A stretch of DNA of 54,198 bases, counting the filler, from Jimgerdemannia flammicorona (lineage: Eukaryota): assembly GCA_003990765.1 (NCBI GenBank). It is 3 parts of 3 records of this genome, joined end to end, with 100 filler letters (N's around TTAATTAATTAA, not from the genome) between each part and the next. Parts side by side here need not be neighbours in the genome. Positions count along the whole stretch, not along the records: positions 1 to 18,002 come from RBNJ01002335.1; 2 more parts are not named here. One strand, 5' to 3'. A program made the position numbers and the translations under genes. Below the pieces are notes generated by a model. The model was not told where the DNA came from and did not search any database. It was given only the letters and a program-made list of their open reading frames with translations. Positions 1-48,413 of the stretch are shown here, one piece after another (the stretch's first letter is position 1; each line of letters begins with the position of its first letter).

Positions 1-295
1 AAAAAAAAAATATAAGAGTTCTGATAGATATACTGAATTAGGCAGATCTGAGAACTCAAGCTAGCAGTATATCAGGAGAGGATATAGTATAGATATAGAC
101 TTTTTTAGTAGTATAAGTAGATAGAGGAGATCTGGAAAGTATCTGGTATCTGAAAGGAGTAGAGAAGGAGCAAGGTTTATAAGCTTTACCAATAAGGTGA
201 AGGCAGGAGATTGATCTGAGAGTATGTAGAATAATAAGACTGAGAAGAGAGAAAAGATAAGCACTAAAGAGACTGGAGGATTGATAGCTGGTAGG

Positions 296-930
296 TGTAA
301 TAACTCTTATTTCTATCCCTCTCTTATCCTTTAGATAATTAGAGAAACAAGGTATTACTTAGGGACTTAGTATACAATATGTACCAAGAAGCCTTCAGTT
401 TGAGAAAGTACCTACTTAAAAGTAGTTATAGTAGTAGTATCCTTCTTATCAACCTTGGTTATAAGAAACTTATTCTTTGGTGTGCACAGACTGAATTTGC
501 CTTAAAATTTAGGTTCAATGAGTTTACTTAAGTCTTTGAGATTTATATACCAGTCTCAGTTCTGGCAGAAGTTAGCTAGTTTAGTCAGAAATACTAGAGT
601 CACTTAGATGTTATTACTAAGACTCAGAGGAATGTATATATATGGGAGAAACTTAATTCTTATATCAAGAACTAAACTAAAACTCATTTATTTCAAATGG
701 AAACTGGGGGGTATTTATACAAGTTGGTCTGTGATTTCTAACTAAGTATAAGTGACTAATTTGGTAACTATAGTGAGATTTGTAATTATGACCTTTGTCA
801 GATAGTTTGTGATAAAAAATACTTTGTAATCAAGACCTCAATTACTAGGCAATTATTAGTATTGCTGTAGCACTAGTTGTTATGGTGCTGATCACTGGGG
901 ATAAGCTAGATATTATTTATTTATATCATT
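296..930 (-). mobile_element. Distal part of the 3' LTR of Gypsy element 1 (LTR split by LINE-A)
   Basis: On the minus strand, TATAAATA (712-719) is followed by AATAAA (about 688-693), and the segment ends ...GTTATTACA at 296. The other LTRs in the window have the same layout. The segment is CpG-free. Confidence 0.55.
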
Positions 931-940
931 TATATTATTT

Positions 941-2481
941 ATTATTATTTTATTTTATTTTATTTTATTTTTTTTTATAATCACTTGGACTTCTTTATTT
1001 CAATCAGTATATATGAATATTAAACAATATACAAGTCTCCTTAACCACCCTCAACTATACCTAAAGGACCTACTAAACTCAGTAGGACCTGTCAATCTAC
1101 TCCAATTTTCTATCACACCTCACTCTCTCTTAGCACCAAATGACTCTGACTTCCAAGAATAATGTCTTGTACTTTCTTCACCACTCTAAACTCCTACCAC
1201 CTCTTCTGGTATCACTGCTCCTGTACTACCTCTCTTATAAGTTAATACCAATACTCCACCAAGTCTCTGATTCTTATCCAGTATTCACCTTCAAAGACCC
1301 ACTGCCAGTGTAATACCATCAAGACCAATACTCCTAAGATCCACTCCACACTACCCCAAACATCACTAATATCTCCCACCAATCTCCTCTGGGTAACTAT
1401 ACTGACAGAATCTCCTGGCTGTCCTCTTTCAGAACCCCAATATTCCTCCAAGGTCTACTAATAATCTTCTACTCCAGAGCAGACCACTAATATATACTCC
1501 AGAGTTTGAACTATCTCTCTAGCAATTTCAGTACACCATTTACAATCTCAGTACCCATTAACCACCATCCAACCTATCTAGTAGTTCAACATCACATTCT
1601 TTCTCAAGAATTACTACCATACTACCCAATATCTAGGGGGTACCACCTTATTAAATATAGCTATCTAACTCCAAACTTGACTCTATTCTTACATCTCTCC
1701 AATTCCAGCCATCTGCCATTCAACCAGTCACTACTTGAGTGGGCCTGACCTAGTCTATTCTATAGTCTCAACCAAAGAATAGTCCTTCAACTCTCTTCCT
1801 CTTACTCTTATTAACTCTAGCTGCTATCACTACTGCTCTGAGTCAACACTCTTCTCTACCACCTCCACCTCAGGCCCCCCTCAGTCTCATGGCTAGCCAG
1901 GCCTCTACAATGCCCCACCAGAACCCTTTGTACCACATTCTACCAACTGATCCAACTTGAAGTAACCCTCTCAAGTCCTTCTACTCCTCACTCTAAGGGC
2001 AGAACCTGACCTCTCAATTGTCTATCACTAGTCTACCCTATCTCTCTTCTTCTAGCTCTATAAGACAGTGACCCCACCAGCCCCTAAGGGCCTACAGCTA
2101 CTACTAGAAATTCACCAACCCTAGACCCCCATCAGCAATTGACAGCACTAATGTCTCTCATTCAATCTATAGCTACCTTTCCCACTAGAGCCACTCTTCA
2201 ATAACCTTCTTCAGCTACCACACCACCCACTCTGAGAAATCCAAGTAGTAATCCAGATACCACAACTTTGGTAATCAGTACATATTCAAAACCACCACTC
2301 TTCCCACCAGGGAGAAGTTATGATCAGCTCAGCCTATTAGTATACCTTCCTATTTCTGCACCATCACACTCTATTACTCTCTTGGCAAAACTGTCCCAAA
2401 CACTGAAAACCAGATACCTAGATACCAGACAGCCTCTTTATTAAATACAACTCATCCAAACCCTCCTGCAGCTCTAATGTC
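941..2481 (-). mobile_element. LINE-A (L1/Tx1-like), 3' part: end of RT, C-terminal region, 3' UTR and A-rich tail; degenerate
   Basis: The 3' end GTCCAAGTGATTAT-A(n) matches the end of the intact copy at about 54178-54198. It translates to EAVWYLGIWFSVFGTVLPR at about 2385-2440, homologous to EAVRYLGIYLSVYGSVLPK. Many stops. Confidence 0.85.
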
Positions 2482-5400
2482 TTTTTTTTTTTTTTATAGC
2501 CTCTTGGACTTTACTATTTATTATCAATCTATCAAATATAATTACAATATCCCCATCTACTACCCAATACCCCTAGGGCCCCCTCTCTTTATATCTTCAT
2601 ACTTGAATACTATCTTGCCACCCACCATCTCAATTGTCCCCTCACTCTGCCTATAAATTTTCTCTATCAAATGGTGCTACTGACCTCCCTGCAGACCCCA
2701 TCCTGGCCACCAGCCCATTAAGACATTCTCCATCAACTCTTTCTATCTTAATAACTACTCTTCCAGACTCAAATGTTTCTCTTCCTCAAATACAAACAGC
2801 CAATGACCTGTCAGCTCCACCCATACAGCCAATATCTAACTCAAAGTAAGTCACTCCTTTCCTACTCTCTCCACCAATCTATCTCTCAGATCCTCCTATC
2901 TATTCCTCTCATGATCCCTTTTATATATCATACTCAATCTATTTCCAACCACTAACAAAAAATCTCCAAGTACTATACACTCCCCCAGTTAATGTTCTGG
3001 TGTCTGCACAAACCCCTCTTCTTGTCCTACATTATAGCACTCCTCACAGTCAAAGCTCCCCCCCTCCATAAGATGGTCTGAGCAAAAGTTGAGCATGATA
3101 TTCCTTTATAGTATGCACCACTATACCACCCAGTACTTGGGTGATACCCATCATCTCATCTCTGCACTCCAGGCCCAGACTCTACTCCAGTTCTACTCCT
3201 CTTTAATATCTACCAACTATCAACTACAAGGCCATATATATTGTCCCATTCCCCTCTGGCACTCAACTCTATTATCAATATCAATGTCTATAAGGAGAGT
3301 GTCCCCCAGCAATACCCAATCTTATCTTTATATTGCTGGACCCTAAGACACCTCTCCTTCATCCCACTGCTAGTGAATTCCAATACAGTGAGCCCCATCA
3401 ACAACTCTCTACCAGAAGTCCTTAAACCTCATATGCCCACTATTTTGAAGCCCAACCAAAGACAGCAGATCTCTGGTAGTTTCTCTTGATGAGTATCTCA
3501 TCTCCCAGACCCTCTTCAGCAGTAGAATTCAGCTACCACCTCTCAGTTCTACTGCTCTCATCAGCCACCATGCTCTCAGACAATATAATCTCTTTGAGAA
3601 GTCAACCAGCTCAAGGCCTCCTCTAGCCACTGGTAATGACAAGATTTTCCAGCTAATCTGACTCCTCCTCTCAGCCCAGATCCAATCTTTAGCCAACTTC
3701 AATAGCCTCTTCACCACCTAGGCTAAAAAGTCTGGATGATATGTCAAATATCATAACTTTGGCAACCAGTAGATATTCCAAATTGTAATGTGTCCCACTA
3801 AAGACAAGTGATGGCTGCCCCAACTATACAAGACCTCTCCCCAGACAACTATCCACTACTCCCACCAAGGTCATGATAGGACTGATCCATATACTGAGAG
3901 ATAGATTCCCAAGTACCTCACAGTCTCTTCTATAGAGATAATTGTTCCAATGACATCCCCTTTCATCAGGCCATTGCCTAACACCATTGTTTCACACTTG
4001 TACCAGTTAATTTTAGCCCCAGAGTGTACCTCATACCACTCTACTGTTTCTTGGAGTTCTTTGATATCAGCAATCAATCCTAGACCAACTACTATATCAT
4101 CTGCAAAGGCACCAACTTTCCATATAATATCAAATACTGAGAGCCCCACTATCTTCTACTGAATTCTATCTATCAATAGCTCCAAAGATGGAGCATATAA
4201 AATAGATGACAGTGGGTCTCTCTGAAGAATACTCCTCTCCAGAGAGAATGCTACCCCTCTATGCCTATTACATATGAGCACTACTCTACTTCCCTCCAGA
4301 AGGCTGATCATTGTCACTTGAAACTACTGAGGAATACCAATCTGATCCAGGACCTTTGCCAGCTAGATCTGCCAAACACAGTCATATATCTTCTCCTTAT
4401 CCAAGAAGACCAATCTCCCATTCAGTCTACAGGCTTGAGTCTCTTTAATAATATCATACACCCAGGCTATGCTATCCCTAATGAGCCAGCCTCCTACAAA
4501 ACTTTACTACTTCTCACCCAAGACTTACTGAGCCACCTTCTGCAGCCTCACCACTATCACCTTAATGACCAACTTCCTGTTTATGTCCAGAAGTATAATG
4601 GGCCACTAGTTCTTCCAGTTCTCCCTCTGACTCCTATTCTTAAAAAGCAGAGTCATCAGCCCCAGATCCTACTCATCCACCCACCTTTCTAACTATAGTA
4701 CTAAGTTACAGAGTACCATCAACTCTTCCAGTACTCTAGGGATATCCACCATCTTCTTCCAAAAGTCCCAGGACAGATCATCCTCTCCTGGTATCATACC
4801 CAGTATGGTTACGGCAAGAATCTGGTGAATTTTCTCCTTCTGAACTAGTGCCACCAAACTGCCCAGCCCATCTACTTGTAGAGAGTACCAATTCTCCAGA
4901 GCATGTTCTATAATAGTAACATCAGCCCCACTCTCCTCCTCTCTCCACAGACCACTCCACCTCTCCTTCAATGAGCCCAGAATTGCTTGTGAACTATGGA
5001 CCAGCAGCCCATCAGAATTAAGAACACCCTTCCATTACTGCCTCACTCTTCTTGCCTGAAGAGATCTTGAAAGGAACTTAGAGGGCCTCTCCCTCTCCTC
5101 CAGTCCCTATCAGTATATGTAGCTATATAGCCAAACTCTGCACTTGTATCTCCTCCTCCTCTCTCAATATCTGTTGCAACTCTATAATCTCCAGCTTTGC
5201 TCACATTACTCTCTAATACTCCACCCCCTCCAGGGCCAAGAGCTCCATCCAACCCTCCAAAAGTCCAGCCAATCTAGCAGAAGCCCAGACCCCTCTCCTC
5301 CTCCTCCACCTCCCTGTCATCTTGCCAGCTTCCCCCTAGTAAATCCTAGTGGCCTCCTTCAATCTCATCTATTGAATACTAACTGTGATACCCTCTCATA

Positions 5401-7238
5401 CCCAACCCTCTATTCTCTGTCAAATATCCTCCACCCACCTGTCCTATAGCTCCTTCTCAGCCAACAAAGAGGAATTGAGGTGCCAATGTCCAGGCTCATC
5501 TCCACTCCCCCCAAAATGACCCTGCCCCAACAGCCTCCAGTGATCAGACTATAGATACCATACAGCCTCTAGTGACTTCCAAATATCCAGACCCCAGCAG
5601 TCTGCTGTCAGCATTCAGTCAATCCTCATCTCCAGACCATTTATCCAATGTGTATATACCCTCCTATCTCTCTAGAACTCTCTGCCAGCATCCATTAAAG
5701 AGCTCAGCCTCTCTACTTCCTCTTATATCTCCAGTCTCTCACTTCTGCCTACAGCCCTCTGCCCTCTGTCAGTCCTATCCACCAATGCATCCCAGTTCAT
5801 ATTAAAGTCTCCTCCAAGAATATCTACTCCAGCCTCTACAAGGGCCCCACTCTTCAGAAGTCTCTCAATCCACTCTCTCCCTGTGTATAGCAGGGTAGTA
5901 GCAGGAACTTACTGTAACTGGCTCCCAATCTGGCCAGATCTACTCTCCCCAGACCAGCCTGTCTCCTCAGCTTCTTGAATCTTAAATCTCCCCTCTACCT
6001 CTCCAGACCAGGATCCCAACCTTACTCTTCCAAACTACCACATCTCTTCATTCTGTCATTCATTTCAGTCTATCCAAGTCATCTTCACATCTAACATCCT
6101 GCAAAAGAAAAAGATCAGCCTCTAAACTCTTCAGCTAAGTAAAGATGTTCTAATACCTAACTGAACTCTGAAGCCTATTCATATTCATAGAAAAAATGTT
6201 TATTATACTAATCATAAGTAATGTTAAGAGTTATATATGAAGGCTCCCCACACCATTACTGAAGGCCAATCCTGAGTTTTCTCTATGACCTCTCTCTCTG
6301 TCAATTGAATCTAAATATCAACATTCTCTGTCTAAAAGGAGGTCCCTTCCTAGACCCTGAACTCAATATCAACTACCACTCTATACTCAGCCATGACCTT
6401 CTCAACTCTCCTCCTCATCTCTATAGCAGTCACCATAGAGATCCCTTTTACCAGAAGTTGTATCACCCTGGGATCTCACCTCAAGCAGCATGCTATTAAG
6501 ATAAATATCTCCCCAATAGTCAACCTAGTCTTCAGTGTATCCTCCAATAGCCCAGTCTTCTCAAAGCCCACCTCTACCCCTTCCAGGCCCCTCAGAAACT
6601 TAACAGATACTATACTATTCATCTGCTTAGCAATCAGCCTCAAGACCATATTTGCCATCACTACCAAGCCTCAGAAGTACAAAGTAACCATGAACTCTGA
6701 GATTGACTTCTTGAGTAATGGAGCCACCACTAGACCCATTATACTATCCACCAGGTCACTGGGCCTCATGCCCAACCTATAACTCAGTCTACTAACAGTT
6801 CTATCTAGATTTTTTTCCAGATTGCCCATCACACCCCTATCAGCAGTTACCCCTCCAGCTACTACACCACCAGCCCCCCCACTCTGGCCCTCCAGTGGAG
6901 CTCCCCTCTTCTCTCCAGTAGCTATCTTCTCTCCAGTCCCTTTGCCTGAGCTCTTATTCTGACCTTATCAGCAAAGGTCAGCTGTCCACTTCCCTGCTGC
7001 CTTATTCCACCTCTTCCACCACCACTGGCTCTTCATCCCCTCAGAGAGGTACTTGGCATCTCTAAGTCTGCACCTTGACCCTACCTCATATACTATCAGT
7101 TAAAGACACTGGAGCTGCCCTACTCCATATACTCTTCAGAATGCTCATTACTTGCCATGATATTAGAACCTTTTTACCAAAAATATTGTTAGAAATATTG
7201 TCTGAAGTTTATATAATCTAAATGTTACTAGAGAAAAG
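2482..7238 (-). mobile_element. LINE-B (same family as LINE-D), nested inside LINE-A, with about 1.1 kb of ORF1 deleted; degenerate
   Basis: Poly-T at 2482-2495. ORF fragments KVGAFADD, RRSQISW and PGEDDLSWDFWK. Endonuclease start MISIINIFSMNMN at about 6215. The 5' end at about 7150-7238 aligns with 48333-48420. Confidence 0.92.
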
Positions 7239-10200
7239 TGTATAGCCCCAATGCTTATACCAAGCTCTAAGGTCTCACATTTTCCCCAATTTAACTTTAT
7301 ACCTACCAATCTCTCATACTGTTCAATCTCTTCTCATAAAATATTCACATTAACTGCACTATCTAGCCTAACCACCATATTATCTACAAAAGCCCCAAGC
7401 TTTCAAACTACCTCTCTCATTCTCAGTCCAGTCAGCTGTTCTCTCAGCCAGGCCAATACTGGCTCTAATAAGAGAATATAAAGGAGGAGAGATAGAGAGT
7501 CCCCCTGCAGAACTTCTCTACCTAAAGCAAACTCTGGACTATACTAACTATTCATCAGAACTGTCCCTCTACAGCTATATACTAGTCCCATCAGTCTTCC
7601 AATCTCTCTAATATCAAATCTGATACTCTATAATACAGCCTCTAGATAGCACTACCATACTCTATTATATGCCTTTTTCTGATCTAAGAAGACCATCCTC
7701 TCATTGACCTGATAGCTTCTATAGCCCTCTAAGACATTTTGCACCCATGCAGTACTGTCTCTGATCTACCATCTCTTCACAAAACCTCTCTGCTCCTCCC
7801 CTACCAGTCTACCAATCTACTGCTACAATCTTCCTACCAAGACCTTTGAAACCAACTTCTAATCCATATTCAGCAGCATGATCAGCCTCCAGTTACACCA
7901 TACCCTCCTGTTACCTTTCTCTTTGTACAGTAAAGAGACCAGTCCTAAGTTACTGTTACTAACCCACTGACCCTCTTCCAATATATAGTTGACCATCTTG
8001 ACAAGCCAAGCCCCAAACTCAGTCTGGAACTCCTTCCAAAACTCTCAAGAAAGCCCATTCTCACCTGATGAAAAGCCACCAGGTACCTTCTGCAGAACCC
8101 CCAACATCTCTTCCAAAGATACTCTGCCTATTATAGAAGCCTCCATCTCTGATAGTAATACTACTGGCCAGTTTTATACTAATAACACATTAGTAATGTC
8201 CAGCACCCCATCTCTCCCTCCCCCACCCTCATCACTCCAGAGGGCCTGCTATTGTTCAGAGATCTCCTTCAGTATATCTGCTATACTAGAAACTTCAACT
8301 TTATTCTCTCATAATACTGAAGCCTAGCTGTGCTGCACCTTTTTAGCTTTCAAGACACTAGATAAATATTTTGTCAATCACTCACTCTCTTCCAGTCACC
8401 AAGTCCTCAAGTATACCAGAAGACCATCAATTACTCTATCCTCAGTCTCTCTCATATCTGACTACAGATCTACCACCTCCCTAGCCAGCCAGTACTGCTC
8501 TTCTCCAGCCAGTATTCTGTCTTCTAATAACTTTAGTCTCTACCTCAAATCTCTCAACCCTCAGTTTCTTGTCCTTTTGCTCCTTTTCAGCCACCTCTCC
8601 AGCATTCTGCTAATATATACCCACTAAGTATTTAAACCTACCCCACTATTCAGCAATAGACAAATCTCTGTTCACTTACCTCTCTACTTTCTGTCTAGCC
8701 AAGCAAACAAATTGCTCCCTTTCCACCAGTTGTCAGAGCAAGGCTATATTAAGACATCAATACCCTCCTCTACCACTAACTGCCTGAAATCTTCCACTTA
8801 CTTTAACCCCCCAATGGTCAGACTATGAGCACCACCACACCTTCACAATATTCAACATATTACCCTAATGTTCAGCTACCAGTATCCAATCAATCTGTAT
8901 CTCCACCATCTCATCACTCACCAGATACCATCTAGCAAAGGACCTGACTTATCTTCAGCCCTCAGCCATACACCATCTACCAATTCCATACCTTTTTCTA
9001 TCTGAAGCCACTGAGATAGCCCCTGAGAAACAGTTATACTAGCTCCACCATCTGACTGATCCAGTGTATAATCCTGTAGTATATTGAAGTCTCTCCCCAG
9101 AATGTCCAATTCTAGAGCTACCCAACCCTCACAAGCCAGCCACTCTTTCACCCATTGCTTTTGCTCTCTACCAACTACTGGCAGATATACAGAGCCCACC
9201 AAAAGTCCATCTCTATTACCTTCTTTCAATCTTCCCCACACCAGATGACTATCAAAGATTTCTACATCAACTAGTATACCTTTTCTAACCCCAACTAGAA
9301 TACCAACTTGCTTATTCCAACCAGTACCTCCAAATCATTCCTTACTCTATAACTCATAATCCAGCATATCATAAGTATAAATATCCTAAAGAAATACCAC
9401 ATCATACCTCTGGACCTTCAGCTATTGAAAAGATACTACTGCTTAACTCTATTATGTAGATTATTAACATTAATTGATAAAATTCATAGGTTGTTCTTCA
9501 TTATAGAAAATGAGTTTAGATATCTACTACTGCTACTACTACCTTCTCAGTCCTACTCTTGATGATATCCCAATGCTCCTTACAGACTACTCTCCAAATT
9601 CACTCTCCATTAATACTACTATAGAAGAAGTCCACTCATTTCAATACTACCTTTCTGATATCTGCTATTTAGGCTTCATTCACCTCATATCTTTCATCCT
9701 CCAAGAGGGCTGCTACCATAGCAGTTACCAACTTCAGTTCTTATAATACCATCTTGAGAAATTCTTTCCATGTCTCTAGAGAACTCTGAAATACATCCAC
9801 CTCCTTGATGTCTTCCTCTGTGAGCTCCTTCAAGATTTCCTGAAACCAATCATCTACTACCATTACTAGTGGCCCTGGGGTGGCAGGTCTAGGAGTCCTG
9901 CACAGCTCCTGAAGCAATTCTCTATCTACAGACACATCAGAAGCAATCTCTACCAGATTATCCTCCTCTGAAACTTTGTTCAGCTATACTACCTCCCAAG
10001 CCTCAGGATATTCTCAGTGCATATTTGCTGATCTGACCATTATCATGTCCTCTACCTGAGTCTCTGAGACTACCTCAACATTCTCCTTGAAGCCTGCTCC
10101 CCTCTATTCCTCACCATCAGCCCATTTCTCCATCATAAGTACATATATATATGAAGTCTTCAACTCCCACCAGCTGCAAGAAGGACACTTCAGCTGCCTC

Positions 10201-11487
10201 CATTCCTTCTATTCAATTTCTGTCAGATGTGACCCTCTCAGCCTCTTTCTTAACAAATCCTTGCAACACTACCTGCAACTACTCCCAATTCTTCTTATGC
10301 TATTACCTCCTCTTCCCATCTGCCTCAATCCAGATCCAGTCTTTGGCAAATTCCTCCCATTATCTCTTCTGCAGAGTCTTTGCTTCATCATGCTCCTCTA
10401 GGGCAATTAGCAACTCTTCCTCTTTCTGCTCTGAGTCTTTCCTCCTCCAAACCTAATACTTCTGTCCCACAATACAAATGATCTCTGGCCAGTCCTGTTC
10501 TAACCCAGTTGCCTCCTTCTCTTCCAACTGTACCATTGTCTTATAGTTACTATTCCTCAACTTCATGCCCTCTCAAAATATAAATCTGAAATCCACTATC
10601 TCAACAAAACCTTTCAGAGCTTTGGCTATCACTATCTTAGTCTCCTACCTGCTCAGTATTGGCAATTCTTTAACCACTAGCCTCACCACACATGGGTCCC
10701 ATCTCAAGCATCTTGCTATCTCCACCTTAATGTTCTTGACCATCAGCCCCTTCTCCAGAGCCTTCACCATGACCTCCTACTCGATAAAGCCAACCTCTAC
10801 TGCCTCTGCTGAAGGAATAAATCTCAGCAACTCTGTCTCTATAACTTCCTCACCCACTAGTCACAGAATCTCCTTGGCTGATAGACCAAGGTCCAAGAAA
10901 TTGATAGAGACTGCCCATGTCAATACCAACTTATAAAAGAATAGATATATCACCAGCTTGCCAATCTCTACAATTAAGGTTGTCTTGCTCTTACTTCCAG
11001 ACATACTAGTCACTATCTCACTAGAGGCTACTGTGCTATCAGCAGTTATACCTCTAGTTACTGATCTAGCCCTAGGAAAGCCAGTCTTAGCTATCCTACT
11101 CCAGACCCCTGACCCCTGCTGGACCCCTGACCAGTCAGCTGATCAGTCACCTGACACCTACCTCTGTCAATACTATGCTCTCCCTGCTCTCTTACTATAG
11201 GCCTAAAGGCCACTCTTCTGCTCTCCATCACTGTATGCTAGCTATTCACTCTAGTTACTAGCCTCTGATTACCTGTCTGCCTTTTTACTCCATCAGCCCC
11301 AGTAGCCACTGCAAAACTCTTAGAGAGATCCAGGCCAGACCTCCTCCTCTCTAAGTACTCTGAGCTCAATAAACCTTAGGTCACTATTATATAGAAACTT
11401 GACAAATTTTGATGAAACTTATTGTAAATTATTGCCAGACTCTTGCTACATCTAGTATACTAGTATAGGTGAAGTGAAAACTGAAAA
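7239..11487 (-). mobile_element. LINE-A, 5' part: ORF1, APE endonuclease and RT; divergent subfamily, degenerate
   Basis: KLNWGKCETLELG at about 7260-7300 continues the RT broken at 2481. QGDSLSP at about 7490 and LGRDFN at about 9090. ORF1-like region at 9520-11390. Candidate TSD TATATTAYTT at 931-940 and 11488-11497. Confidence 0.85.
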
Positions 11488-11715
11488 TATATTACTTTTT
11501 ACAAAAAGATATCTGTGTGACTTAGCTTGCTCTAAGTAGTTTGAGCAAAAGAAGTCTCTCATTCATTATGTTCATCATTTGTATATCATATATCATACTT
11601 AATCATATGTTATCATCAGGTTATATGATCTCTCATTATATATTATATCTCATCTGTTTGTTTGTTTACATATCATATATCACATCTTACCTGTTCATCT
11701 ATTTTTCTTCTCTTA
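11488..11715 (-). mobile_element. PPT and proximal (U3) part of the 3' LTR of Gypsy element 1
   Basis: Minus-strand purine tract AAGAGAAGAAAAA at about 11702-11714 follows the accessory ORF. The LTR continues on the far side of LINE-A. Confidence 0.45.
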
Positions 11716-11848: not shown

Positions 11849-12538
11849 TCAATGAGGTCTGCAAATAGTTCTTGAACTGATATAAGCATTGGGATAGAGG
11901 TTCTCTATCTAATATGATTGGGGCCATCCAAGTAGGGGTTCTTGATCCTTATGCCTAGAGATATCTATTCAGATAAGTAGTCCTTCAAAGAGGTCAGAGA
12001 GACCTTGAAGCAATTGGTCTGGGTTGTCATTCAGGAGAGAGCTCTAGTGGAGTTTGTAGTCAGTAGACTTGAGAGTAATCTAGGAGTTGGCTTCTTAGGC
12101 TACCTTGATCTCTAGCTTAAAAATCTTAGAAAAGAAGGGGTTCTGGAAGTCCTTCAGTTATATATAGTTAAGGTTGAGGATTATAAAGAATACATAGTAC
12201 ATAATTTGATAGACCTTCTTAGCTAGTCTTTACTCATGTCTATTCAGGTGGGTCTAGTCTGAGATCTGATCAGTAGGTAGGCCATTTGCATATTGAAGAA
12301 GTTGATAGCCAATTTCATATTCATACCAGATTTCTAAGTGGCTGGTAGCAAGGTAGATCCTTTCAATGAATTCATAGCAGTTAAGAATATACTATTCTAA
12401 GTCCTGGCTGGAGAGGTTAAGGGCCTCAGAGTGGCAGTTCCTTTCTTAGATAGTAACCTGGATGTATCTAAAGAGATAGTCAACCTGGTTTGAGAGGGGC
12501 TGACTATAGTAGGCAGTTTGGTGATAGGTAGCAAGCAT
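11849..12538 (-). pseudogene. Degenerate accessory ORF downstream of pol in Gypsy element 1 (about 230 codons, many stops)
   Basis: One frame reads MLATYHQTAYYSQPLSNQVDYLFRYIQ...IWYEYEIGYQLLQY...HE*RLAKKVYQIMYYVFFIILNLNYI*LKDF. The stops are TAA/TAG/TGA compatible with C-to-T change. A similar motif occurs in the ORF at 47653-48332. Confidence 0.6.
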
Positions 12539-12605
12539 TCTTGTCTTGTCTTTTCTTTGGGGAGAGAAGAGAGGGATAGAGATTGTAACATATGTTTGCC
12601 CTGGG

Positions 12606-12613
12606 TATTTATA
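12606..12613 (-). promoter_or_regulatory. Candidate TATA box (TATAAATA) for the accessory ORF
   Basis: About 70 nt upstream of the ATG at 12538, followed by a CT-rich tract and an A-rich pre-ATG leader. Confidence 0.4.
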
Positions 12614-13189
12614 CTTATTTATCTATCTGGTATGACTTCAATTCAATTATGTTTTCTAGCAGAATATGTGACCTGTTTCTATAAGTGGAGCATATACTGG
12701 TTTTATGAGAAAATCCTGATTTCAAAGATATCACTACATTGTAGTTATGATTACACAGAGTTGATAAATCTTGGTCTTTTTTTTTTTTTGTCTTATCAGT
12801 ATATTTATAAGGACTGACCATCCTTGTCTAGGGTGAGGGCTCACATTGTCATAGCTAGGAGTTTGAACCTCTTGGAAATAGTATTTCTTAATCTGAGACA
12901 ATTCCTAGTAATAATATCTATCATATAAATGAACTTAGATTAGTTTCAACATCATCAGCTTTTCTAAGTTCTATATGAAGTATCTGACATCATTCAGCAG
13001 AGATAATACAGATAGTATGAAATGGAATTATTCAAATATATTTTGCTATATCTTGCTGAGTTATTCCTTGCCAGAGTATCTTCTTATAGTGTTCTTTTTT
13101 TCTGTAAAGTTCAGTATTATATATTCCAGATAAATATATAGCATCTTCTTCCTTTGCTATATGCTTAAAGTTTCAGAGCTATAGTTTCT

Positions 13190-14683
13190 TTCTCTACTGG
13201 GAGATAAGTATTTCCATGTAGTTCTGGAGGACTTTGCATGCATTCTCCAGAGTTTTTTCCAGATAGTAATACATATAAGTGAGATAATTCTTCCACTTGA
13301 TGAGAAAAAACTGCTTAACTGTTTTGGTATACTTGTAAACCTTGTAGTCAAGTACTTTCTCAATTTAAATTCCTTATAATCATTGATCCTAATTGAGGGG
13401 TAGTGGTGGAACTGTATACTTAGAGAATATATTCTCATAGTAGTCCACCAGTTGGCTAATATAGAATACCAGATATACTCGAATATTATGGGGAAGTTAC
13501 AACTTATAGTTGACTTTATTAACTTTTTCCACAATCTTATATAGTCTAATTCTTCTAGTACAGAGTTTCTTGGCTAGTTATTGTGCCAGAGTGTCAGGAT
13601 GGAGGTAGTCTGTTCTAAGTATAACTATATTACCAATATTATAGGAGACTTCTCTTTGCTTTAAGTTTACATACTTAGTCTGATAGTCCTGTACTTCTAT
13701 AAGAGCATCTCTTGTCATTTGTATAAGGTCAGAAATGATCTCAGCAAGATCTTGGGCTACTGGGACTACTGATTTCACAGTAGTGCTCAGAGTTCTTGGG
13801 TGTTGACTATGGTTCAGAAAGAATGGGGTCTTTTTCATTGAGGTTTGCTGACTATTATTGTAGGCAAACTCAGCATGGACTAGGTACTTATCTCAATCAT
13901 TCTACTTATAACAGCAGAAGATACTGAGTATCTGCTTGAGAGTCCTATTGATTTGCTCAGTCTGTCCATTAGTCTGGAGATAGTATGCAGTAAAGAACTT
14001 CAGCTTAGTTCTATAGAGGGAGAAGAATGCCTTCCAGAAGTTACTTATAAACTTTACATCTCAGTCAGATATAATTGTGCTAGATATATCATATAGCCTG
14101 GATACTTAGTTGAGAAAGATCTCAGCAATCTCTAGTACTATGGTGATGGTCTCAAGTGGGCTTGTTTGCTTAGATAGTCTACAAATACTACAATAGCATC
14201 TCATTCTACCTTGATCTTGGAGAGCTAGACAATGAAGTATATGGCAATCTGATCTCAGTTGTGACTTGAGATAAGTAAGGGTTATAGAAGACCTATAGGT
14301 AGTTTGTTATCACTTTTGAACCTTTGGCATATCTCACATAAGGCCACAAAATCTTTGATATCCTTAGTCATCTTTGGCCAATAGAACTCTTTTGAGAGGA
14401 GATTGTAGGTCTTCTCAAAATCAAAATATCCTACTGCAGGAATATTATGGAGTTCCTACATGATCTTGAGCTACAGAGTATCATTGTTGGGCACAACTAC
14501 TCTGTTATGGTTTCTATAGATAAGTCCATCATGATAAGTAAATCTTTTGGACATTTGCCTCATGGATTCTGAGACCTCAGCCTCTGGGTCTTGACAGAAT
14601 TAAAGGAAATTTGCCAGAGGGTTGTTCTGTTGATAGCTGTTCTTGATCATCTGAGTAAGGTCTCTAATTACCTTAACTATAAA
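13190..14683 (-). pseudogene. Ty3/Gypsy (chromovirus) integrase with GPY/F region and chromodomain; degenerate
   Basis: FYWPKMTKDIKDFVALCEICQR (Zn-binding region), QTNGQTEQINRTLKQIL, HAEFAYNN, KKTPFFLN, KVNYKL.LP, and chromodomain EKVLDYK...FLIKWKNY. Confidence 0.9.
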
Positions 14684-17600
14684 TTTTTTTTTTTTTTTTT
14701 TTTTTATAGTTACATAGACTGTCCTTTATTACTACCATCTATAATTATAATAATACAACATCACTCCATCCCTTCAACCAATACCCAGCAGACCCATTTC
14801 TCTCTCATTGTCGCCCTCCTGTCTGAGGACAACCCAGTCACCCACCACCTGAATCCTCCCATCACTTTTCCAGAAGATACACTGTACCAAACCTCTGCAA
14901 TCCCCCCCCACCCGGCCCCCACCCTCACCATCAGCCATTCAAAATATCTAGTAATAACCATTCCCAATATGCTACCCTATCTCCAACTCCAACCCACTGG
15001 CCCTCCTCAAATACATGTACCCAATGTCCAGCCATCCCAACCCATATGGCCAGAGCCCAGCTGAGGGTCAGCCATTCATCCCCAACCCCACCAACCAGCC
15101 TTCGGCAGAGCTCTCCCCATCTCTCCCCTTCCCCTCTCTCTAGGGTCTGCAGCTCTAACTGGTCCATGATACATCCCCAGAACACCCCCAAAACATCACA
15201 CTCACCAAGCTAATGTTCAGACATTTGTACCACTCCTCCCTTCTGACCAACATCGAAACATTCCTCACACTCAAATGTACTACCTTCCACCAAATACCCA
15301 GACCAATAGTTCAACATCACATTCCACCAGAGAACTCGCCACCATACCACCCAGAACTTGGAGGGCAGCCACTGCATCACCTACCTGCTCCAAAGCCAGA
15401 GCCCATTCCAGTCCCACTCCTCACCGATCCCAACCCTCTGCCAGGCTTCGGGCCAAAGGTCGCCACCCAAGCCCTGCAGACACTCCATACCCTTGCCAAG
15501 CTAGAAGTCCTCCACCAAAACACCACCTAGCAGTAATCTGTCCCACTGCCACATCCTCGGTCCCCAATCCCCCTCTCCTTCATCACCCTGCCACCAAAGT
15601 CCAATTCTCTTAGCACCATCCACCACCCCCCACCAAAATCCCTTATACTGCATCCTCTTGCTCTCATTCATGATTACCATTGCAAGCAGGTCACCAGAGT
15701 CTCCACGAGGGGAATACCAGACCTCCCACACCCTCTGCATGAGTGGTACCCACTCTCAGCCCCTCAGCTCACTTGCCCTTCTCAGCCACCAGGCCCTCAA
15801 GCAAGGAAGCTATTTGGTAAAGTCCACCAAACCCAGCCCACCTCTTTCCACTGGTAGCATAAGTACCTCTCATCCTATCTGACTTTGCCACCCTCCCCAG
15901 ATCCATGATCTTGCCATCTTCAATAGCCCCTTGACCACCCAAGCTAGAAAGTCCAGATAATATCTCACATACTACAGCTTCAGCAGCCAATATACATTCA
16001 GCACCATCACCCTTCCTGCTAAGGATATATACTGACCACCCCATCGCAGAAGCATATTTCTTCACTCCAGAAGTTGTTGGTCCCACCAAGCACAAGGGAG
16101 AAGTGACCCAAACATTGAGAAGTAGATTCCCAAGTAACATACTGACTCACCTGCCAGTACCACTGTTCCAATTACATTGCCCCCAACAATTCCACTGCCA
16201 AGCACCAGGGTTTTGCATTTGTGCTAATTGAGCCTAGCACTGGAACCCCTCTCATACCATTCAACAGACTGTTGTAATTCCCCCACATCTGCCAATGAGC
16301 CCAGTCTAACCACTATGTCATCTGTAAAGGCCCCCATCTTCCAATTAATCCCTAAAATGTCCAAACCCTCAACTCGATGCCAGATCCTGTCCAGTAGGGG
16401 CTCTAGGGAAAGGGCATATAAGATGGGTGACAAAGGATCACCTTATAGCACTCCACGACCAAGAGGAAAGGCCACACCCCTGTGGCCATTGACCACCAGT
16501 GCTGCCTGACTGTCCTCCAAGAGGCCAATCAATGACCCATGGAACCCCTGGGGGATACCAATCCATTTCAACACTCCCTCTAACCAGTTCCTCTGCACTC
16601 TATCATATGCCTTCTCCTGATCCAAAAAGACCAACCAGCCATCCACTCCTATAGCCCAGGCTCCTTCAATTACACCATGTACCTAAGTAGTCCCATTACA
16701 GATCAACCAGCTGCCGACAAATCCATGTTGCTCTACACCAAGCACTTGTTGAGCAATTCCTTATAGCCTCATCACTAATATCTTTGTCACCAGTTTGTGG
16801 TCTATGTCAAGTAGCATGATTGGCCACCAGTTCTTCCAATCTTCCTGCCTCTTCTTATTCTTGTAGAGCAAGGAGACCAGCCCCAGGTGCTGGCCCCCAA
16901 TCCAGGTTCCAGACCAAAGAATCTCACCACACATGTCTGTCATTTCCTCCAGTACCTTGCCCACCCCAGCCATCTTCTTCCAAAAATCCCAGGGAAGCCT
17001 ATCCTCCCCTGGGGCTGTCCCCTTACTAGTCATGGCCAAGATCTTACAAATCTCCTCTCCACACACCAGGTCCCCCAAAGTCCCCAGGCCCATCACAGGG
17101 TCTAGATGCCAATCCCCCAGCTGCTGTTCAATGTTCAAGGCATCCTCCCCTCCTTCCTCCTTGCTCCATAGATCCTCTCAACTGGTTCTCAGCAATCCCA
17201 GAATTGCCTGGGTTCTCACCACTGTTTTGTTCATCATGCTTGTAACATCCATGATAAAAACCTAGTAGGTCTCTCTCTCTCCTCAAGTCCCTGCCACTGC
17301 AGCCATGCCTCCAACCCCTTCAGCCTCACCTCCTCCTCCCTATGTAACACTCCCTTAAGTTCCTCAACTTCCTTCTGGATCCTCACAATATGCCAGTCAG
17401 TTGCCTCCCAATCTTCTAGTACTCCTGCCCATCTCTCCAAGAGGGCCACCAATTGCTGTAAGGCCCAAAGCACTCTCTGCCAATATTGGGCACTCCTTCC
17501 TTTCCCCGCTTCACTCCAATACCCCTGAGCACTCACCTTTAGCCTCCTCCAGTGGTCCCCAATCACCAGACCCCAGTCCCACCATCTCCCAATATTCACA

Positions 17601-18002
17601 ATAACCTCCTTTTCCCAGTCCACCCACAAAGCCCCATCCTTCAACAAGGAAGAATTTAGTTGCCAATGTCCAGGCCCATCCTCACTTCTCTCCAACCTCC
17701 CCCCTCCTAGCAGCCCCCAGTGATCAGACTACAGACACCAAACCACCTCCAGTACTGCCCAGATATCTGCTCTCCAGCAATCTGCTGTCAAAATCCAGTT
17801 AATTCTGGAGCCCAGCCCTGCTGCTCAGTGAGTATAAATCTGATGATCATCCCAAAACTGTCTTCCTGAATCCACCAATGAACTCAACCTCTCCATCTCC
17901 AACCAGTCTTCCAACCCACCACTCTTGCTCTGCATTCCTCTCCCTCTATCTGTCCTGTCCATCTCCTTATCTCGTACCATGTTGAAGTCCCCCCCCATAT
18001 AG
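14684..18002 (-). mobile_element. LINE-C (L1/Tx1-like) inserted just upstream of the Gypsy integrase; runs into the assembly gap
   Basis: Poly-T at 14684-14705. ORF fragments FLDQEKAYDRV, LSPILYALSLEP, AFTDD, DGPGHWQLNSSLL and GGDFN at about 17985. Some CpG retained. Confidence 0.93.
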
Positions 18003-18102
18003 NNNNNNNNNNNNNNNNNNNNNNNNNNNNNNNNNNNNNNNNNNNNTTAATTAATTAANNNNNNNNNNNNNNNNNNNNNNNNNNNNNNNNNNNNNNNNNN
18101 NN
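18003..18102. other. Assembly gap with artificial linker (N44-TTAATTAATTAA-N44)
   Basis: Exactly 100 nt with a six-frame stop 12-mer in the centre. Identical to the second gap. Confidence 0.97.
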
Positions 18103-25199: not shown

Positions 25200-27061
25200 G
25201 GCTGTATAAATTATTTGGCTTAAACTATGATTCAAAGTCTCCAGTATGCACAGGAAGGTCACTAACAGAGACGGGGTTGTACCTTGGAGCATCAGACTTA
25301 TAGATATAACCTGGATCATTAGACTTATTGACATAAAATGGATCGTCAGGCTTACTGACATAACCATGTTGCAGTGGCAGGTGCCGATTTGGTGAGGTCC
25401 ATGTCGTTATCTGACGGAGTGTTGTGTGGCACTACTTGTTTGATTTGACCGGGCTAATCACGATATATATGCTACAGTGGGATGTCGTAGTCTTGTACGG
25501 GTTCGGCCTGGGCATGTTTCTGCCATGGCTTTCGGATAGTGAGAATAATGGAGATTATAATGATGACAATCAGAACACTACATATGACAGCAATTATTGT
25601 AACATTAACGGTAAGTGGTGAGGGGATGGTTGAGTTGGGAGATGGGATGGTTGAGATAGGAGAGAAGCTGGTGATCCACTGAAATGGTATTTCTCGGGTA
25701 TCTAATATGCTGAGATCATTCATAGTTTTGGCTCCATCTGTGCCTGTTATATATATCATAATGAAATTAGCAATACCAATTTAGTGTATCGAGCATCACG
25801 ATATCGTTTAAATTTGAAGTGGCACCAACACCACAGCATATGATGATAGCAGTGCCATTGGTATCTATTTAATGATGACTCAGTTGTCATGTTCGATAAA
25901 CCTTCAACAATTAATATATATAACATAAGAATATTACTTACCCAATATAGCAGTATGCCATCGACATCAGAGTGGGATCACCCCTGTTACATTAATTGGT
26001 TTCCATGTACTGCTATTAGTACTATTGTGGAAGTCGGCTGAAAATTAGCATGAATGGAAAACTTTGAAGTCTGGATGGCCCACTGTACTCACAAGAATTC
26101 TTGCAAAATACCATAAATGTTATTATCATATTCTAACTCAAAAGTGGAATTTCCTCCATAGCTGCTAGCGTCCAATTGACAATTAAATTAGAGGTTTGTT
26201 ACCAATATACCTTCCGACCATCACTAGAACATTGTAATAGTAAATCGATGTATCATAAGCAACACTAGTAAGACATTCCAACAAGAGGAGAAATGGAGAG
26301 AAGAAGAGAAAGAGAGAAATCATACCGGAGCATTGTTACGGTATACTCAGTTCTAGGCGCAGGTTTCGGCTCAACAACATTGAGAACGTTCCATACTAAC
26401 ATTTTGGTATCAAATGTAATCATATCATCAAAGATATGCTCAGCGCTTGTATTGGAAGAGAATCCTATAAGTTAATTAACAAAAATACAAGGTGTTAACT
26501 AAAAGAGATCTTTGAAAGTCGGTAGAATGTTGGAAACGTTTGATAAACTGCGGGCCTACCTGTATAATAATCGCCTTCCCCAGCCCAAATGTAGGCTACC
26601 CCTGATGAAGTCCACGAAGCGGATATATAATCCCTTTGCTGAGGCATATTGATGATGGCAGATGGAAGTGTCCAATTTCTAGTGACGGTGTTGTACTGAG
26701 CGAACCCACTTTGCAACAATGGCTGACCACGGCTGTTACCTCCGCCCCAGACATAAAACGACTCACCATCCGCGGAAGGCCACATTGCATGAGAGTCGCT
26801 CAGTGGAACAGTGGAGTTTCCTGTAGTAATCGTCAGGTCGACCCATGATGGGTTAGTGGAAATCCAGGGTTGAGAGATATCGAGGCTGTATAAGCTTTTC
26901 ACAGTAGTGTAAGGTCGTATTATTGAGCCACCGAAGACGTAGATGGTGTCGTTGATGAGCACGGCAGCCTGGTTATACTGGGAGGCAGGTATGAAGCCCG
27001 TGGCGCGATGGGCTATAGTTGCGAGTAACGTGACAATAGCCAGGAAGGTGGGTTTCGACAT
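25200..27061 (-). pseudogene. Multi-exon Kelch/galactose-oxidase-repeat single-pass membrane protein; 5' exons intact, 3' half disrupted
   Basis: GCCACC-ATG at 27061, signal peptide MSKPTFLAIVTLLATIAHRATG, and Kelch blades (IYVFGG, FYVWGG, PAPRTEYT). GT-AG intron 26559-26465. In-frame TGA at 25967-25969. TM helix IIAVICSVLIVIIIISIILTI, followed by an early TAG at 25472. The 3' end coordinate is approximate. Confidence 0.8.
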
Positions 27062-28725
27062 GGTGGCAAGTTGAAAGATTAATGCCCTCTGGATCAGAGA
27101 GACAGAGGGACCTGAAAGTCGAAAACATGACTTTGCCACAAATACGAGCACTTGATTCGTTCGTTCGACAACCCCAATAAAAAATCACAATTCTACAACT
27201 AGACCCAAACAGGTTACGTGACTGAAATGTTCAGTCAAACAATTGCGCCAACATACAGAACAGAAACCGAAAAGCGTTTTGTAGGCCAATACCCTCCACC
27301 GTATCCAAGTTATCCGGAGCCTCGTTCAGGCAAATCAGAGAACACCCTCCGATTAGCACCCAGGAATAGGAAATCTGGTACGATTGCTAGAACAATTAGT
27401 CGCAGTCCCACCAAACCCGAATAAGCCTTCCAAATCGGGTAACCAAGACTCACAGAACCCCACCGAATTAGGACAAGCTTGAATACATCGAAATAGGGTG
27501 ACCACGCACCCCTACTCGTCGTTCCAAACTCTCGGTAATCGAGGTCACGTGCCCGACTTTCGAACTCAAAACGTTGAATATAGAATAATTATCGTATATT
27601 ATCTGTACAAATCGATCGCCACAGTACATATTGTATGGCCAAGCACAAACACATGCAGCTATTGAAATATTGCATTAATAACTTCGCTGTACTCCAACCA
27701 TTCGAATACCAGTGGGCAGTGATCTCGGAGAGCCTGCAGCGAGCCATATCCTATATGATAACGTCAAAGTCGAATCTCGGAGGGTGGCGAGACCTTTAAA
27801 GTTGCGAACGCTTTGCTGGTTCATACCCAGGAAGATATTTGTACACAAAAACATATATTTTAGTAAAGGCGTATTCCTCAGGACCCTGGCACCGAGGCTT
27901 CTGAGGTGTTCCAGGTCAGATGAATTGGTGTCTTGAATCTCAACTGCCGCTTTCTTCAGAACACGCACACTTTGCAGACGCAAAGAGTAACCATACTCAG
28001 GAAGAGTTTTACAGTACCCCTAGTTGAGTGCCATCCGTACAAAAGCAATCATCGTTTAAGGAGCCACTTTGGGCGACCAGTCCGTTCATGTCGAACACCA
28101 AACGCACAAAACAGAGAGGATGATGTCACATGATTCCACCGACACCTGCTGCGCCCCGATGACGGGAAGCCCTAATTTCTAAGGCCGTCGACCAGACGGT
28201 CTTTGAAATTTGTATATCCCATCCAGTCGCTTGAGACCTCGCCTCCCCAGCGGCGCACTCCTCCAGTACTGCCAAAGTTCCGCTTCACTAGGTAAGTGTG
28301 CATCTGCTATTGCTATGCCCGCTAAGCCCGGGACGAACCCTAGGAACGAGATCTTGCAGGAGGCGTAAACTCAGATCGATTATATATTACTGATAATAAT
28401 TTGAAAGGAACGAAAGGAAACTCATCTTTTTTTTTTTTGTGGGGGGGGGGAAGGGATTTAACAAAAAATTGCAGTCAAAAGATTGGCAATTTTGCAAAGC
28501 AAGAGATCGATTATGCTATGTTTAATAGGATTGACCTTGTGCAATAAACCACTTTCTTACTATAACCTTTACATCTGAAGTTTTTTTTGTAATGTACAGA
28601 ATGGCGAAAATTCTTGTGTTGAGTTTAAAGTTGTGGACGTAAACATTTGATGTTTTCTTTAATGCACCCTCGTTCGCACCTCTATACCTTGTCACATATA
28701 CAACCAAAGCCATTATTTATTCTTT

Positions 28726-36065: not shown

Positions 36066-36103
<38 letters not shown>

Positions 36104-36203
36104 NNNNNNNNNNNNNNNNNNNNNNNNNNNNNNNNNNNNNNNNNNNNTTAATTAATTAANNNNNNNNNNNNNNNNNNNNNNNNNNNNNNNNNNNNNNNNN
36201 NNN
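36104..36203. other. Assembly gap with artificial linker (N44-TTAATTAATTAA-N44)
   Basis: Same structure as 18003-18102. Confidence 0.97.
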
Positions 36204-36330
36204 ATTCGGATGGGGCGATTCGGATTAAATCCGAGTTGATCCGGATGGCTTCGGATTTGAGATTCGAATCAAACCGTCATGTGACGAATCGAATCCGGAT
36301 TTGATTCGAATTGACTCGTTCGGAGCACTA
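36204..36330. mobile_element. Probable terminus of a hAT-like DNA transposon or MITE
   Basis: The end read inward is TAGTGCTCCGAACGA, followed by dense subterminal TTCGAA/TCGGAT/ATCCG motifs. The other end is not visible because of the gap. Confidence 0.45.
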
Positions 36331-37926: not shown

Positions 37927-38259
37927 TACTCTCAAACGAATGGATTTACGTGTATAAATTGAGTTTAATTAAGGAGTTCGGCTAAGCCTCCCATGCGTCT
38001 ATAATTACGTATATTAATAATAAAAAATAAAATAATTGGTGTCAGATGCAGGCAAATTTGCCTGCTAAAATATAATTGGCTATAATATCTATAATAATAT
38101 ATATTATTTTTAATTTCCAAATTTGGTATAAATAATTATTATAGTAAGTACTGTAATAGCTTAGACAGGAAGAAGTCACTGTGTAACACAATTGGCCTTT
38201 ATCCCTCAGGGTCGGCAGCCTGGTCTTGCATACTTACATTCATAAAATCCACCAGCAGC

Positions 38260-43877: not shown

Positions 43878-43926
<49 letters not shown>

Positions 43927-46389: not shown

Positions 46390-47719
46390 ATTGTGGCATT
46401 CAGTTTTGTATGTATAATGAACTTCGACTGCACGGCTCAATGTGCCACTTGGTGAAGTGTGTGATGTATAACTGAAGACGTTGGTGATGTTTGCGGGTCG
46501 ATGGTCATGTGACAGGTCGTTCGAAACGTGCAATAATAGTGGGAGTTCAATTGTTCGTTGGCTCAGGATGTCGATGATGAGGTCATTCGGTTGTTCAACA
46601 ATGGTGGCTCAATTGTTTAGTGGATAAGGGTGGCGGTTATGCTGGCTAAGTTTCCTGGCGGTGATTAACTTGGCACGAACTTGAATTTATGTGGCGACGA
46701 TGGGCTTGCTCTTTATGCGGTCAATTAAAGCGGTCCGTGGCACAGTAGGTCAGGATGACGGCTCGCTCATCCATCTTGACTTGTTAACTTGAAAGGTTCC
46801 TGGTGGTCATTCAGGTCTTTGGCAGCAGTCTTGTATTCTTTGGCTGGGTAACTAGGGTTCCTTGGGTTCCTTAGCTATGTTGCCAGGGTCTTGAATCTCG
46901 AATGGCAGTCGAATGCGCGGTCCGAATGGCAGTCTGAATGTGCGGCGGTTGTGGTCTTGAATCCTTGGCGGGGTCTCGGGTCTCGAATGGTAGTTGAATG
47001 CACAGTCCAAATAGCAGTCTGAATGCGTGGCAGTCGTGGTCTTGAATCCTTGGCTGGGTCTTGGGTCTCGAATGGCAGCGGTCAGGTAACATTTTCTTTC
47101 CGTGGCAAGAGAAAATTCTTTAACTCAAACCTCAAGCGATCGTTACTCTAATTATCTTGTTCTCAGAATTTATCCGGTCTCTTGGAGGCAGTGGTTTCTT
47201 TGTAATCCTTTTTACTTTTAAACACAAGCTGACTGAGGTTTATTCACTCTAAGAATATGGGTTATTTATATAAGTTTGCTAGCTATGGGGGAGGGGGTGT
47301 AACTAAGGCTAAGGTATACTATGTTGTGGCGAACTTCGCTATGCTATTGGCTTGCACAATGCGAGGTGCAGGCTATTGTTTACTATGGATTGGGTTATAG
47401 GAGATAGCAACACTGGATTCAGATGAGCTGATATGATATGATGATTGTTGCCAAAAGCGGTTGTAGAGGGTGGCAATGCTGGATTCAGACCTGCTGACAA
47501 AATGCTGAAAACGGTAGTACTGGGTAGCAATGCTGGATTCGGATGAGCTGATATGATATGATGATTGTTGCCAGAAGTGGTTGTGGAGGGTGGCAATGCT
47601 GGATTCGGACCTGCTGACAAAAGTTGGGTTCTCATGGCTGATGGGCGGTACTCTAGAGGAAATAGTACCCTTCATCTGTGGTGGACAAATCTTGCTGGGT
47701 TGTGATTTCTTCTTCATCA
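46390..47719 (-). mobile_element. 3' LTR of LTR element 4 (about 1.3 kb) with 120-bp (47400-47625) and about 84-bp (46885-47085) tandem repeats
   Basis: Minus-strand PPT TTTGAGGAGAGATA, then TG at 47719. TATAAATA at 47263-47270 and AATAAA at 47239-47244. The left boundary is uncertain. Confidence 0.6.
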
Positions 47720-48332
47720 TATCTCTCCTCAAAGGGGGGAAGTGCCGGCCAAGAGGTGAGGGGGTAGAAAAGTGGCCAGTCATCTTCAACAATATTCTCC
47801 AACCCTTGAACAGCTTGAATGCAGACAGAGGACTAGTAGACTCTCTGTTGCTCCTCTTCTTCTTCTGAAGGCTCATTAGTTTCGGTCTCAGAGGGGGTTT
47901 CTTCAGGGGCAGGGTCTTGGAGTTCTTGGGCCTCCTCTTCAAAGACAGAAACTTCTTGGGCTTCTTCTTGATTTGGTTCCCAAATGATGAGGTGTGAATT
48001 GTGGCTGACAAGGTGGTGGGTGGTTGGGGTAGCTCCAACAGGTGCTTCTATAGTAATGGGCGGTTCTTCAAATAGAGGTGGTGTGGAAACCTGGCTGAGT
48101 AGATTCGGTTTGTTGGCTTCCTACAGTGATGCAGTTGCTGCCAATAGAATTGGCTACTTTGGATTCTATCCAGTCAGCATCTTCGGTTGATAGGTGGGAG
48201 AGGCTACCAGCTGTTACTCCTTGTAAGTGTGCTATAGCCCAGGGGATATGGCGGAAGATTTGGTGGACACAGAGGGCTCTCTTGATTAGTCAGCTGGTGG
48301 TTAACATTTCGGCAATGAGGTCTTCCTGGCAG
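47653..48332 (-). pseudogene. C-terminal part of the accessory ORF of LTR element 4, cut by LINE-D
   Basis: LIKRALCVHQIFRHIPWAIAHLQGVTAGSLSHLSTEDADWIE, then after one frameshift an acidic/Pro-rich tail (EEEAQELQDPAPEE...PPFEERYDEEE) that runs through the PPT into the LTR. Confidence 0.6.
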
Positions 48333-48413
48333 ATCTCTTTCCAGTACCATTCAGGTTACACAACCTTTGGAAGGCACTTTCGACATCGTTTTTGGCAAAA
48401 AGAGACTAACAAT

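Follow-up and report, generated by a model that had tools for sequence, protein, structure and literature searches.

A third gene of Ty3/gypsy elements in Jimgerdemannia flammicorona, lying before the right-hand repeat in one family and inside the repeat in its relatives

Fungal Gypsy elements are usually annotated with gag and pol only, and their solo LTRs are usually annotated as non-coding debris. Extra ORFs of LTR retrotransposons, in both sense and antisense orientation, are reviewed in PMC7264820, the available text of which names Boty as an antisense case in fungi and gives the functions as unknown, and thousands of plant eORFs are counted in the excerpted text of PMC6317226. Two ORFs are described as usual in the available part of PMC3248453, and for fungal elements the legend of Fig. 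3 in PMC2864245 marks an 'add. ORF' of unknown function, which may be a fungal precedent in sense orientation. An earlier note on the DNA studied here took it as established that fungal chromoviruses normally encode only gag-pol; this stands as the usual description but not as a rule, as there are precedents for extra ORFs in fungal Gypsy elements (brtn of Boty, PMC7264820; 'add. ORF', PMC2864245; both as given in the available text). In the literature covered, which comprised sources other than subscription journals, no description was found of the gene family reported below or of fungal elements with a gene in U3.

The window, by which is meant the whole stretch of 54,198 nucleotides of Jimgerdemannia flammicorona DNA (assembly GCA_003990765.1) that was analysed, consists of three contigs stitched together, with N spacers at 18003-18102 and 36103-36204; the first contig (1-18002) is from record RBNJ01002335.1. 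On its minus strand a decayed integrase with a Tf2-type SH3 and a chromodomain occupies 13194..14671 and ends with a stop at 13196-13194. The 5' part of this element is missing, a poly-A tail abutting it at ~14670, and the chromodomain scores 17 bits, below the Pfam cut-off (25.1). Downstream on the same strand lies a third gene, which extends from an ATG at 12538 to a terminal TAA at 11715-11713 that touches the PPT. A degraded PPT and the first ~125 nt of a 3' LTR follow (11559..11714, minus strand), with the first LTR bases absent in this copy. Some 10.6 kb of LINE-type sequence separates this from a further LTR piece at 293..913 (minus strand), which corresponds to LTR positions 148-793 at 81% identity; the further piece is probably the displaced remainder of the same 3' LTR and would have been joined to the end at 11559.

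The earlier note had placed an ORF relic of about 230 codons in sense orientation between the integrase-chromodomain stop and the PPT. Its position, strand and core were confirmed, the frame of ATG 12538 containing the core sequence pointed out there. The length has to be revised, since the homologous gene has about 275 codons and runs to the TAA at 11715-11713, the shorter figure being due to a frameshift in the window copy near 11930-11943, as comparison with homologous copies indicates. In addition to this frameshift, the frame from ATG 12538 contains ten stops within its first 229 codons, and CpG o/e around the locus is 0.00-0.02. The gene frame is nonetheless open to a greater extent than chance would give: in an alignment with 29 other copies it has no stop common to at least 26 copies between 12538 and 11852, with several common to 14-22 copies, and each of the other five frames (12538-11750) has 5-12 stops common to at least 26 of the 29. 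The relic in the window is a dead copy of a real gene.

The remainder of the window includes G-rich LINE-type elements at 914-11558, 14670-18000 and 48340-54198 (endonuclease-like match, E 6e-4; RT, E 2e-26), which interrupt the LTR of the element described above at 11559 and a second LTR, belonging to the family termed C below, at 48340. Similar LINE 5' parts adjoin the gene in the same orientation in loci L003 and L016, and LINE pieces were seen in 15 other loci; possibly these LINEs have a target preference for such LTRs. CpG-rich regions, which are probably host genes, are located at 36706-37968 and 26495-27184 (both minus strand), at 39038-40518, and at 43432-44412 (plus strand). Pfam identified an APH-type phosphotransferase (E 2e-15) and Kelch repeats (E 1e-14) among them; the set also includes a 102-nt tandem repeat array and an ORF of 326 codons that has no Pfam match.

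A protein search of the fungus's own genome gave 6,495 first-look candidates, of which 150 were scored, and the copies belonging with the window gene were designated family A. Among 76 distinct copies, these being the top-scoring and better preserved matches and not a random sample, 23 are open for 269-276 codons to the TAA that begins the PPT, and 21 of these 23 retain the ATG. Of 20 wide stretches, 19 have the integrase upstream of the gene, and in 99 of 99 copies the gene stop is followed by a purine tract. Four copies (L061, L062, L066 and L080) have both LTRs, which are 790-825 bp long and 90-93% identical; the order PR-RT-RH-IN was read within the LTRs of all four (L061 without gag), and in all four the gene lies outside both LTRs, U3 included. 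The intact copy L070 carries a Chromo domain (PF00385, 45.4 bits against a cut-off of 25.1, E 7e-12) and a Tf2-type SH3 that also passes its cut-off, family A having the features of a Ty3/gypsy chromovirus with the chromodomain at the integrase C-terminus. A 946-nt contig from run X1, a data set only presumed to be RNA, covers the ORF (L082:357-1213) but as a contig cannot reveal a transcript start or strand; 20 of the 27 ORF differences listed for it are at third codon positions. No longer, fused form of the gene was present among 8,000 candidates scored, which speaks weakly against such a form. The earlier note had asked after an open frame in a reconstructed consensus and after linkage to Gypsy pol. 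Natural copies are open, as counted above, and of 105 copies 79 are continuous from the gene to the integrase end, placing it between pol and the LTR, while 16 are cut by the end of the locus and 10 end earlier.

The pattern of substitution was then compared across copies. Against L111, a metagenome relative with the same stop-PPT-LTR layout, 36 stop-free own-genome copies give a dN/dS of 0.167 (0.127-0.217; median dN 0.24, dS 1.48), a value which is approximate because dS is near saturation, and differences by codon position of 0.275/0.167/0.476. Within family A, dN/dS is 0.29 over 101 copies, broken ones included (63 with stops), which is comparable to the pol controls, namely integrase at 0.21 (19) and RNase H at 0.26 (17). 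The corresponding values are 0.24 for family B (25 copies) and 0.28 for family C (34 copies), two families introduced below. The spacer of family A has no codon periodicity (0.146/0.144/0.134, 83 copies), and transversions alone in the family A gene amount to 0.013/0.010/0.032 by codon position, a pattern that is weaker in families B and C. The dN/dS of about 1 that the earlier note had considered was therefore not what was found, the values being 0.17-0.29. Open copies, dN/dS and linkage to pol together support a third, selected, sense-strand gene situated consistently between pol and the PPT in family A, and this is almost certainly a real gene under selection. An artefact, a fragment of a host gene or the gag of a nested element might be suspected from a dead window copy surrounded by nested LINEs, but selection like that on pol and a fixed position argue against it, no gag or host family was matched, and every homologue with readable context lies in a Gypsy element or LTR; we find this explanation scarcely credible.

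Protein collections yielded only a few environmental proteins, none of them named (1 among 146 candidates, 5 from 1.84 billion representatives, and 4 of 3,833), and two of these led back to high-copy families in the fungus's own genome. One of 308 pattern matches in metagenome contigs was a relative, and none of 26 in viral contigs. The genome holds three gene families, A, B and C, with the proteins of B and C about 41% and about 32% identical to that of A, respectively. First-look candidates number 5,552-6,823 per query across three high-copy lineages, these being overlapping sets and not copy numbers.

Families B and C have the gene within the LTR. In nine of ten B loci the LTR begins with the same TG, about 240 nt ahead of the ATG, the search pattern having matched another site in one, and the ten comprise four solo LTRs with 4-bp target duplications, three that run into a primer-binding-like site and three without a 3' end. 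All ten C loci have a TG start about 207 nt before the ATG; four of them follow a PPT and pol, three are solo with 4-bp duplications, two are 5'-LTR-like and the end of one was unread. In L185 (B) and L176/L184 (C) the gene is present in each of the two LTRs. The gene is upstream of the LTR TATA and AATAAA in both families, which places it in U3, so that it is present in every LTR, whether 5', 3' or solo. The window has an example of its own, a distant homologue of family C at 47653..48337 (minus strand), which is truncated at its 5' end by a LINE, sits inside a C-type LTR reaching to about 46403, and is on another contig of the window than the family A copy. The 'env position' assigned to the ORF by the earlier note accordingly describes family A, where the gene precedes the PPT, and is the exception within the gene family, B and C both having the gene inside the LTR. 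No Chromo match was obtained in the integrases of L185 (B), L175 and L176 (C), and none was flagged in eight B and C rows.

Some features of the repeats themselves were also recorded. The LTRs of A, B and C (L066:93-882, L164 and L167) share a core, TTGTATAAATA, with AATAAA about 27 nt later, despite their distant pols, and the start of the primer-binding site is common to A and B. The 4-bp target duplications of B and C are at alternating purine-pyrimidine sites, namely ATAT, ACAC, GTAT and ATAC (L158, L159, L163, L164, L167, L168 and L174).

The pols of A and C are only 30-39% identical at the protein level, while a 350-nt part of the A spacer matches, at 76% DNA identity (267/350), a C stretch running from the integrase stop to just before the PPT (score 293, shuffle maximum 33). 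Within the window a non-coding spacer segment at 12802..13082 (minus strand) is likewise 76% identical (210/276) to family C (score 219, shuffle maximum 40). The 3' end is therefore a mosaic and, judging by these alignments, 3' modules have very probably been exchanged between the lineages, leaving A with the PPT directly after the gene. A tree of RNase H, containing own-genome rows without named reference elements, groups B with C (99/97; 14 rows, with 12 of 17 family-A rows left out and one long outgroup), and a tree of the gene separates A, B and P0009 from C (100/100; rooted at the midpoint only, with long branches flagged). As the gene tree has A nearer to B and the spacer ties A to C, one capture event is insufficient, and residence in the LTR would be the simpler ancestral state because it is found in both B and C. 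No match to the C integrase tail was found at the protein level in the A spacer, and the 215 nt immediately upstream of the ATG are no more alike between A and C than shuffled sequence is. A relic of a donor LTR start in the A spacer was considered and rejected as evidence: although 53 of 97 copies have the word TGTGAC, the region scored no higher than shuffles did in 20 comparisons (best 11 of 200).

Conservation of the spacer between A, C and, in part, L111 would suit an accessory factor acting at the RNA level, of the Rev or CERV type, which would bind genomic RNA at the spacer and promote its export or packaging; the available text of PMC10309623 gives CERV as a precedent for an LTR-retrotransposon export factor. 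However, family B has the gene but lacks the spacer, and no folding signal common to A and C was detected in it (z mostly above -2.6 in A and above -2.1 in C). We hold this role to be decidedly unlikely.

A promoter-like arrangement precedes the gene, with the motif, CT tract and A-rich leader present as the earlier note had them. A TATA box occupies 12603..12614 (minus strand), 75 nt before the ATG, with TATAAATA at 12613-12606, and its 12-mer recurs only once on this strand of the window, at the LTR TATA (720-709); the CT tract (12581-12559) and leader extend over 12539..12581 (minus strand). TATAAAT is kept in 99 of 103 family A copies, and TATA-like boxes are found at -72/-75 in A, -80 in L111, -86 in B and -62 in C, although a TATA-like word is expected by chance in that interval at a rate of 4-21% per sequence and family C has only TATTTAA. 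On this sequence evidence the gene probably has a promoter of its own. In the U3 of a 5' or solo LTR a gene is upstream of the genomic RNA start, and it needs its own promoter to be expressed from there. The gene in B and C has this position, being upstream of the LTR TATA and AATAAA, and genomic RNA started in a 5' or solo LTR cannot include it. Alternatively, the 3' copy could be read by splicing or reinitiation, with selection acting by that route, and the CT tract of family A, which ends in AAAG, could be a splice acceptor.

Six intact proteins were used for protein analysis. A hydropathy scan identified no TM or signal-like stretch in them (best 19-residue hydropathy 0.49-0.74), bearing out what had been said of the relic, and the hydrophobic look of YYVFFIILNLNYI in the window copy (1.36) is absent from all six. 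They share a basic N-terminus, a conserved basic helix at residues 100-113 and an acidic tail with 11-33 acidic and 0-4 basic residues. An env-like fusion or movement protein, which the position and orientation of the gene in family A might suggest, is very improbable in view of the lack of any TM or signal stretch in these proteins, their acidic tails and the U3 location in B and C. As the earlier note had supposed, the protein is predicted to be helical: the model of residues 1-215 (mean pLDDT 74.5, pTM 0.68; the other four models at 55-60, below pLDDT 70) has a long helix at 47-83 followed by helices at 89-96, 100-113 and 117-149. Homodimer prediction scored 0.29 against a mark of 0.32.

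Searches of Pfam (best E 0.006, Apo-CIII, 28 residues, below the cut-off), PHROGs, NCBIfam and PDB sequences gave no significant match. Foldseek against PDB and BFVD returned none at E<=0.001, and VIA-align no chain at Z>=5, an absence which does not show a new fold; ESM Atlas gave leads only, with low shared-feature counts. As judged from these sequence and model comparisons, the gene product is of a new protein family with no Pfam, PDB or fold match. By title, 13 of the 50 VIA-align rows are bacterial HTH or sigma proteins, matching at residues about 64-153, among them SopB (Z 3.9, rmsd 4.4, 80 aligned), VirB (3.6, 4.3, 79), SigF (3.3, 2.8, 49) and DeoR (2.8, 1.9, 48), and ParB is also among the weak DNA-binding-domain matches to these residues. 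The top structural row is, however, an unrelated photosystem subunit (Z 4.1), matches below Z 5 amounting to a common helical arrangement, and the helix-turn-helix resemblance of the modelled core is weak and to be taken as a hint only. A suspected likeness to DUF3102/DUF1016 was set aside, no Pfam member having matched and PF11300 having no candidate in the fungus's own genome. In alignment A4 an invariant F-x-G-x-x-I at residues ~184-193 precedes, in C and P0009, a PxIxI-like word, and tail motifs of the types acidic-F-x-D-L-I-x-F and P-x-x-L-N-F are present in A, B, L111 and P0009. By resemblance, these could be host docking motifs.

We propose that a Ty3/gypsy accessory gene is packaged here as a small TATA-leader-ORF cassette, which sits in U3 in B and C and just upstream of the PPT in A, there on a 3' end very probably exchanged with a C-like lineage. 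The gene would most likely be transcribed from its own TATA, with transcription ending at the LTR polyadenylation signal, and the protein would most likely act in trans in the nucleus, regulating LTR transcription. Its helical core, with the helix-turn-helix-like part, would bind element DNA, and the acidic tail with its hydrophobic motifs would recruit factors of the host's transcription or chromatin machinery, and would in this way raise expression or counter silencing. That the protein is a trans-acting DNA-binding regulator of LTR transcription is, from its predicted features, a tentative reading, plausible but falling short of probable. The more specific reading of 'complex' fungal retrotransposons with a Tas-like self-encoded DNA-binding activator or anti-silencer of a new protein family, whose cassette would pass between chromovirus and non-chromovirus elements, entering and leaving the LTR, and whose solo LTRs would be mini-genes supplying the factor in trans, seems to us rather unlikely as a whole.

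The product might instead be a counter-defence adaptor without DNA binding, which would use its helical core or tail motifs to bind a component of the host's silencing apparatus (the machinery of RNAi, DNA methylation or deamination) and blunt it in trans. Copies decay by near-total loss of CpG (CpG o/e 0.00-0.02), which implies strong silencing pressure, A, B, L111 and P0009 have retained short hydrophobic motifs in their acidic tails, and a product that acts in trans is in keeping with the multiplication of the gene in solo LTRs. Neither family nor structure searches matched any known suppressor, however, and the basic helix and the HTH-like arrangement point to nucleic acid; in our judgement such an adaptor is unlikely.

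Returning to the regulator of LTR transcription, the location of the gene before the right-hand repeat in A and inside the repeat in its relatives suggests that it is a regulatory module capable of moving. An orphan gene under selection is carried by three high-copy lineages, two of them with it inside the LTR, and this provides a natural record of accessory genes crossing the PPT boundary and moving between distant lineages. It also offers a testable case for the role of accessory ORFs in LTR retrotransposons, a question left open by the available text of PMC7264820. If the Tas-like reading is true, solo LTRs would remain working mini-genes across a repeat-rich genome.

Among described systems, the aORF-3S or eORF-3'F of plant and insect LTR retrotransposons (PMC7264820; PMC6317226) agrees in position, orientation, presence in most copies and pol-like conservation, as far as the available text of these sources goes. 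The gene reported here differs in having no TM, a candidate TATA of its own in place of known splicing, a probably fungal host and relatives inside the LTR; plant aORFs were compared through Pfam and protein collections only, with no match. Families B and C resemble sag of MMTV (PMC2277433, available text) in having the entire ORF in U3, and with it in both LTRs and in solo LTRs, but sag is a retroviral glycoprotein, whereas the protein here looks soluble and has no detectable similarity to it, and in A the gene is outside the LTR. Boty brtn of Botrytis and Sclerotinia and gene23 of maize Grande (PMC7264820; bioRxiv 10.1101/2021.04.13.439636; available text) are likewise accessory genes of Gypsy elements between pol and the 3' LTR, brtn providing a fungal precedent and gene23 being nuclear with its own promoter. 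Both are antisense, in contrast to the sense gene here, brtn having been compared by description only. Foamy-virus Bel1/Tas, with which no sequence or fold match was found, may serve by analogy as the working comparison, being in the available text of PMC517496 an accessory gene near the 3' LTR with an internal promoter, whose product is nuclear, binds DNA and has a C-terminal acidic activation domain.
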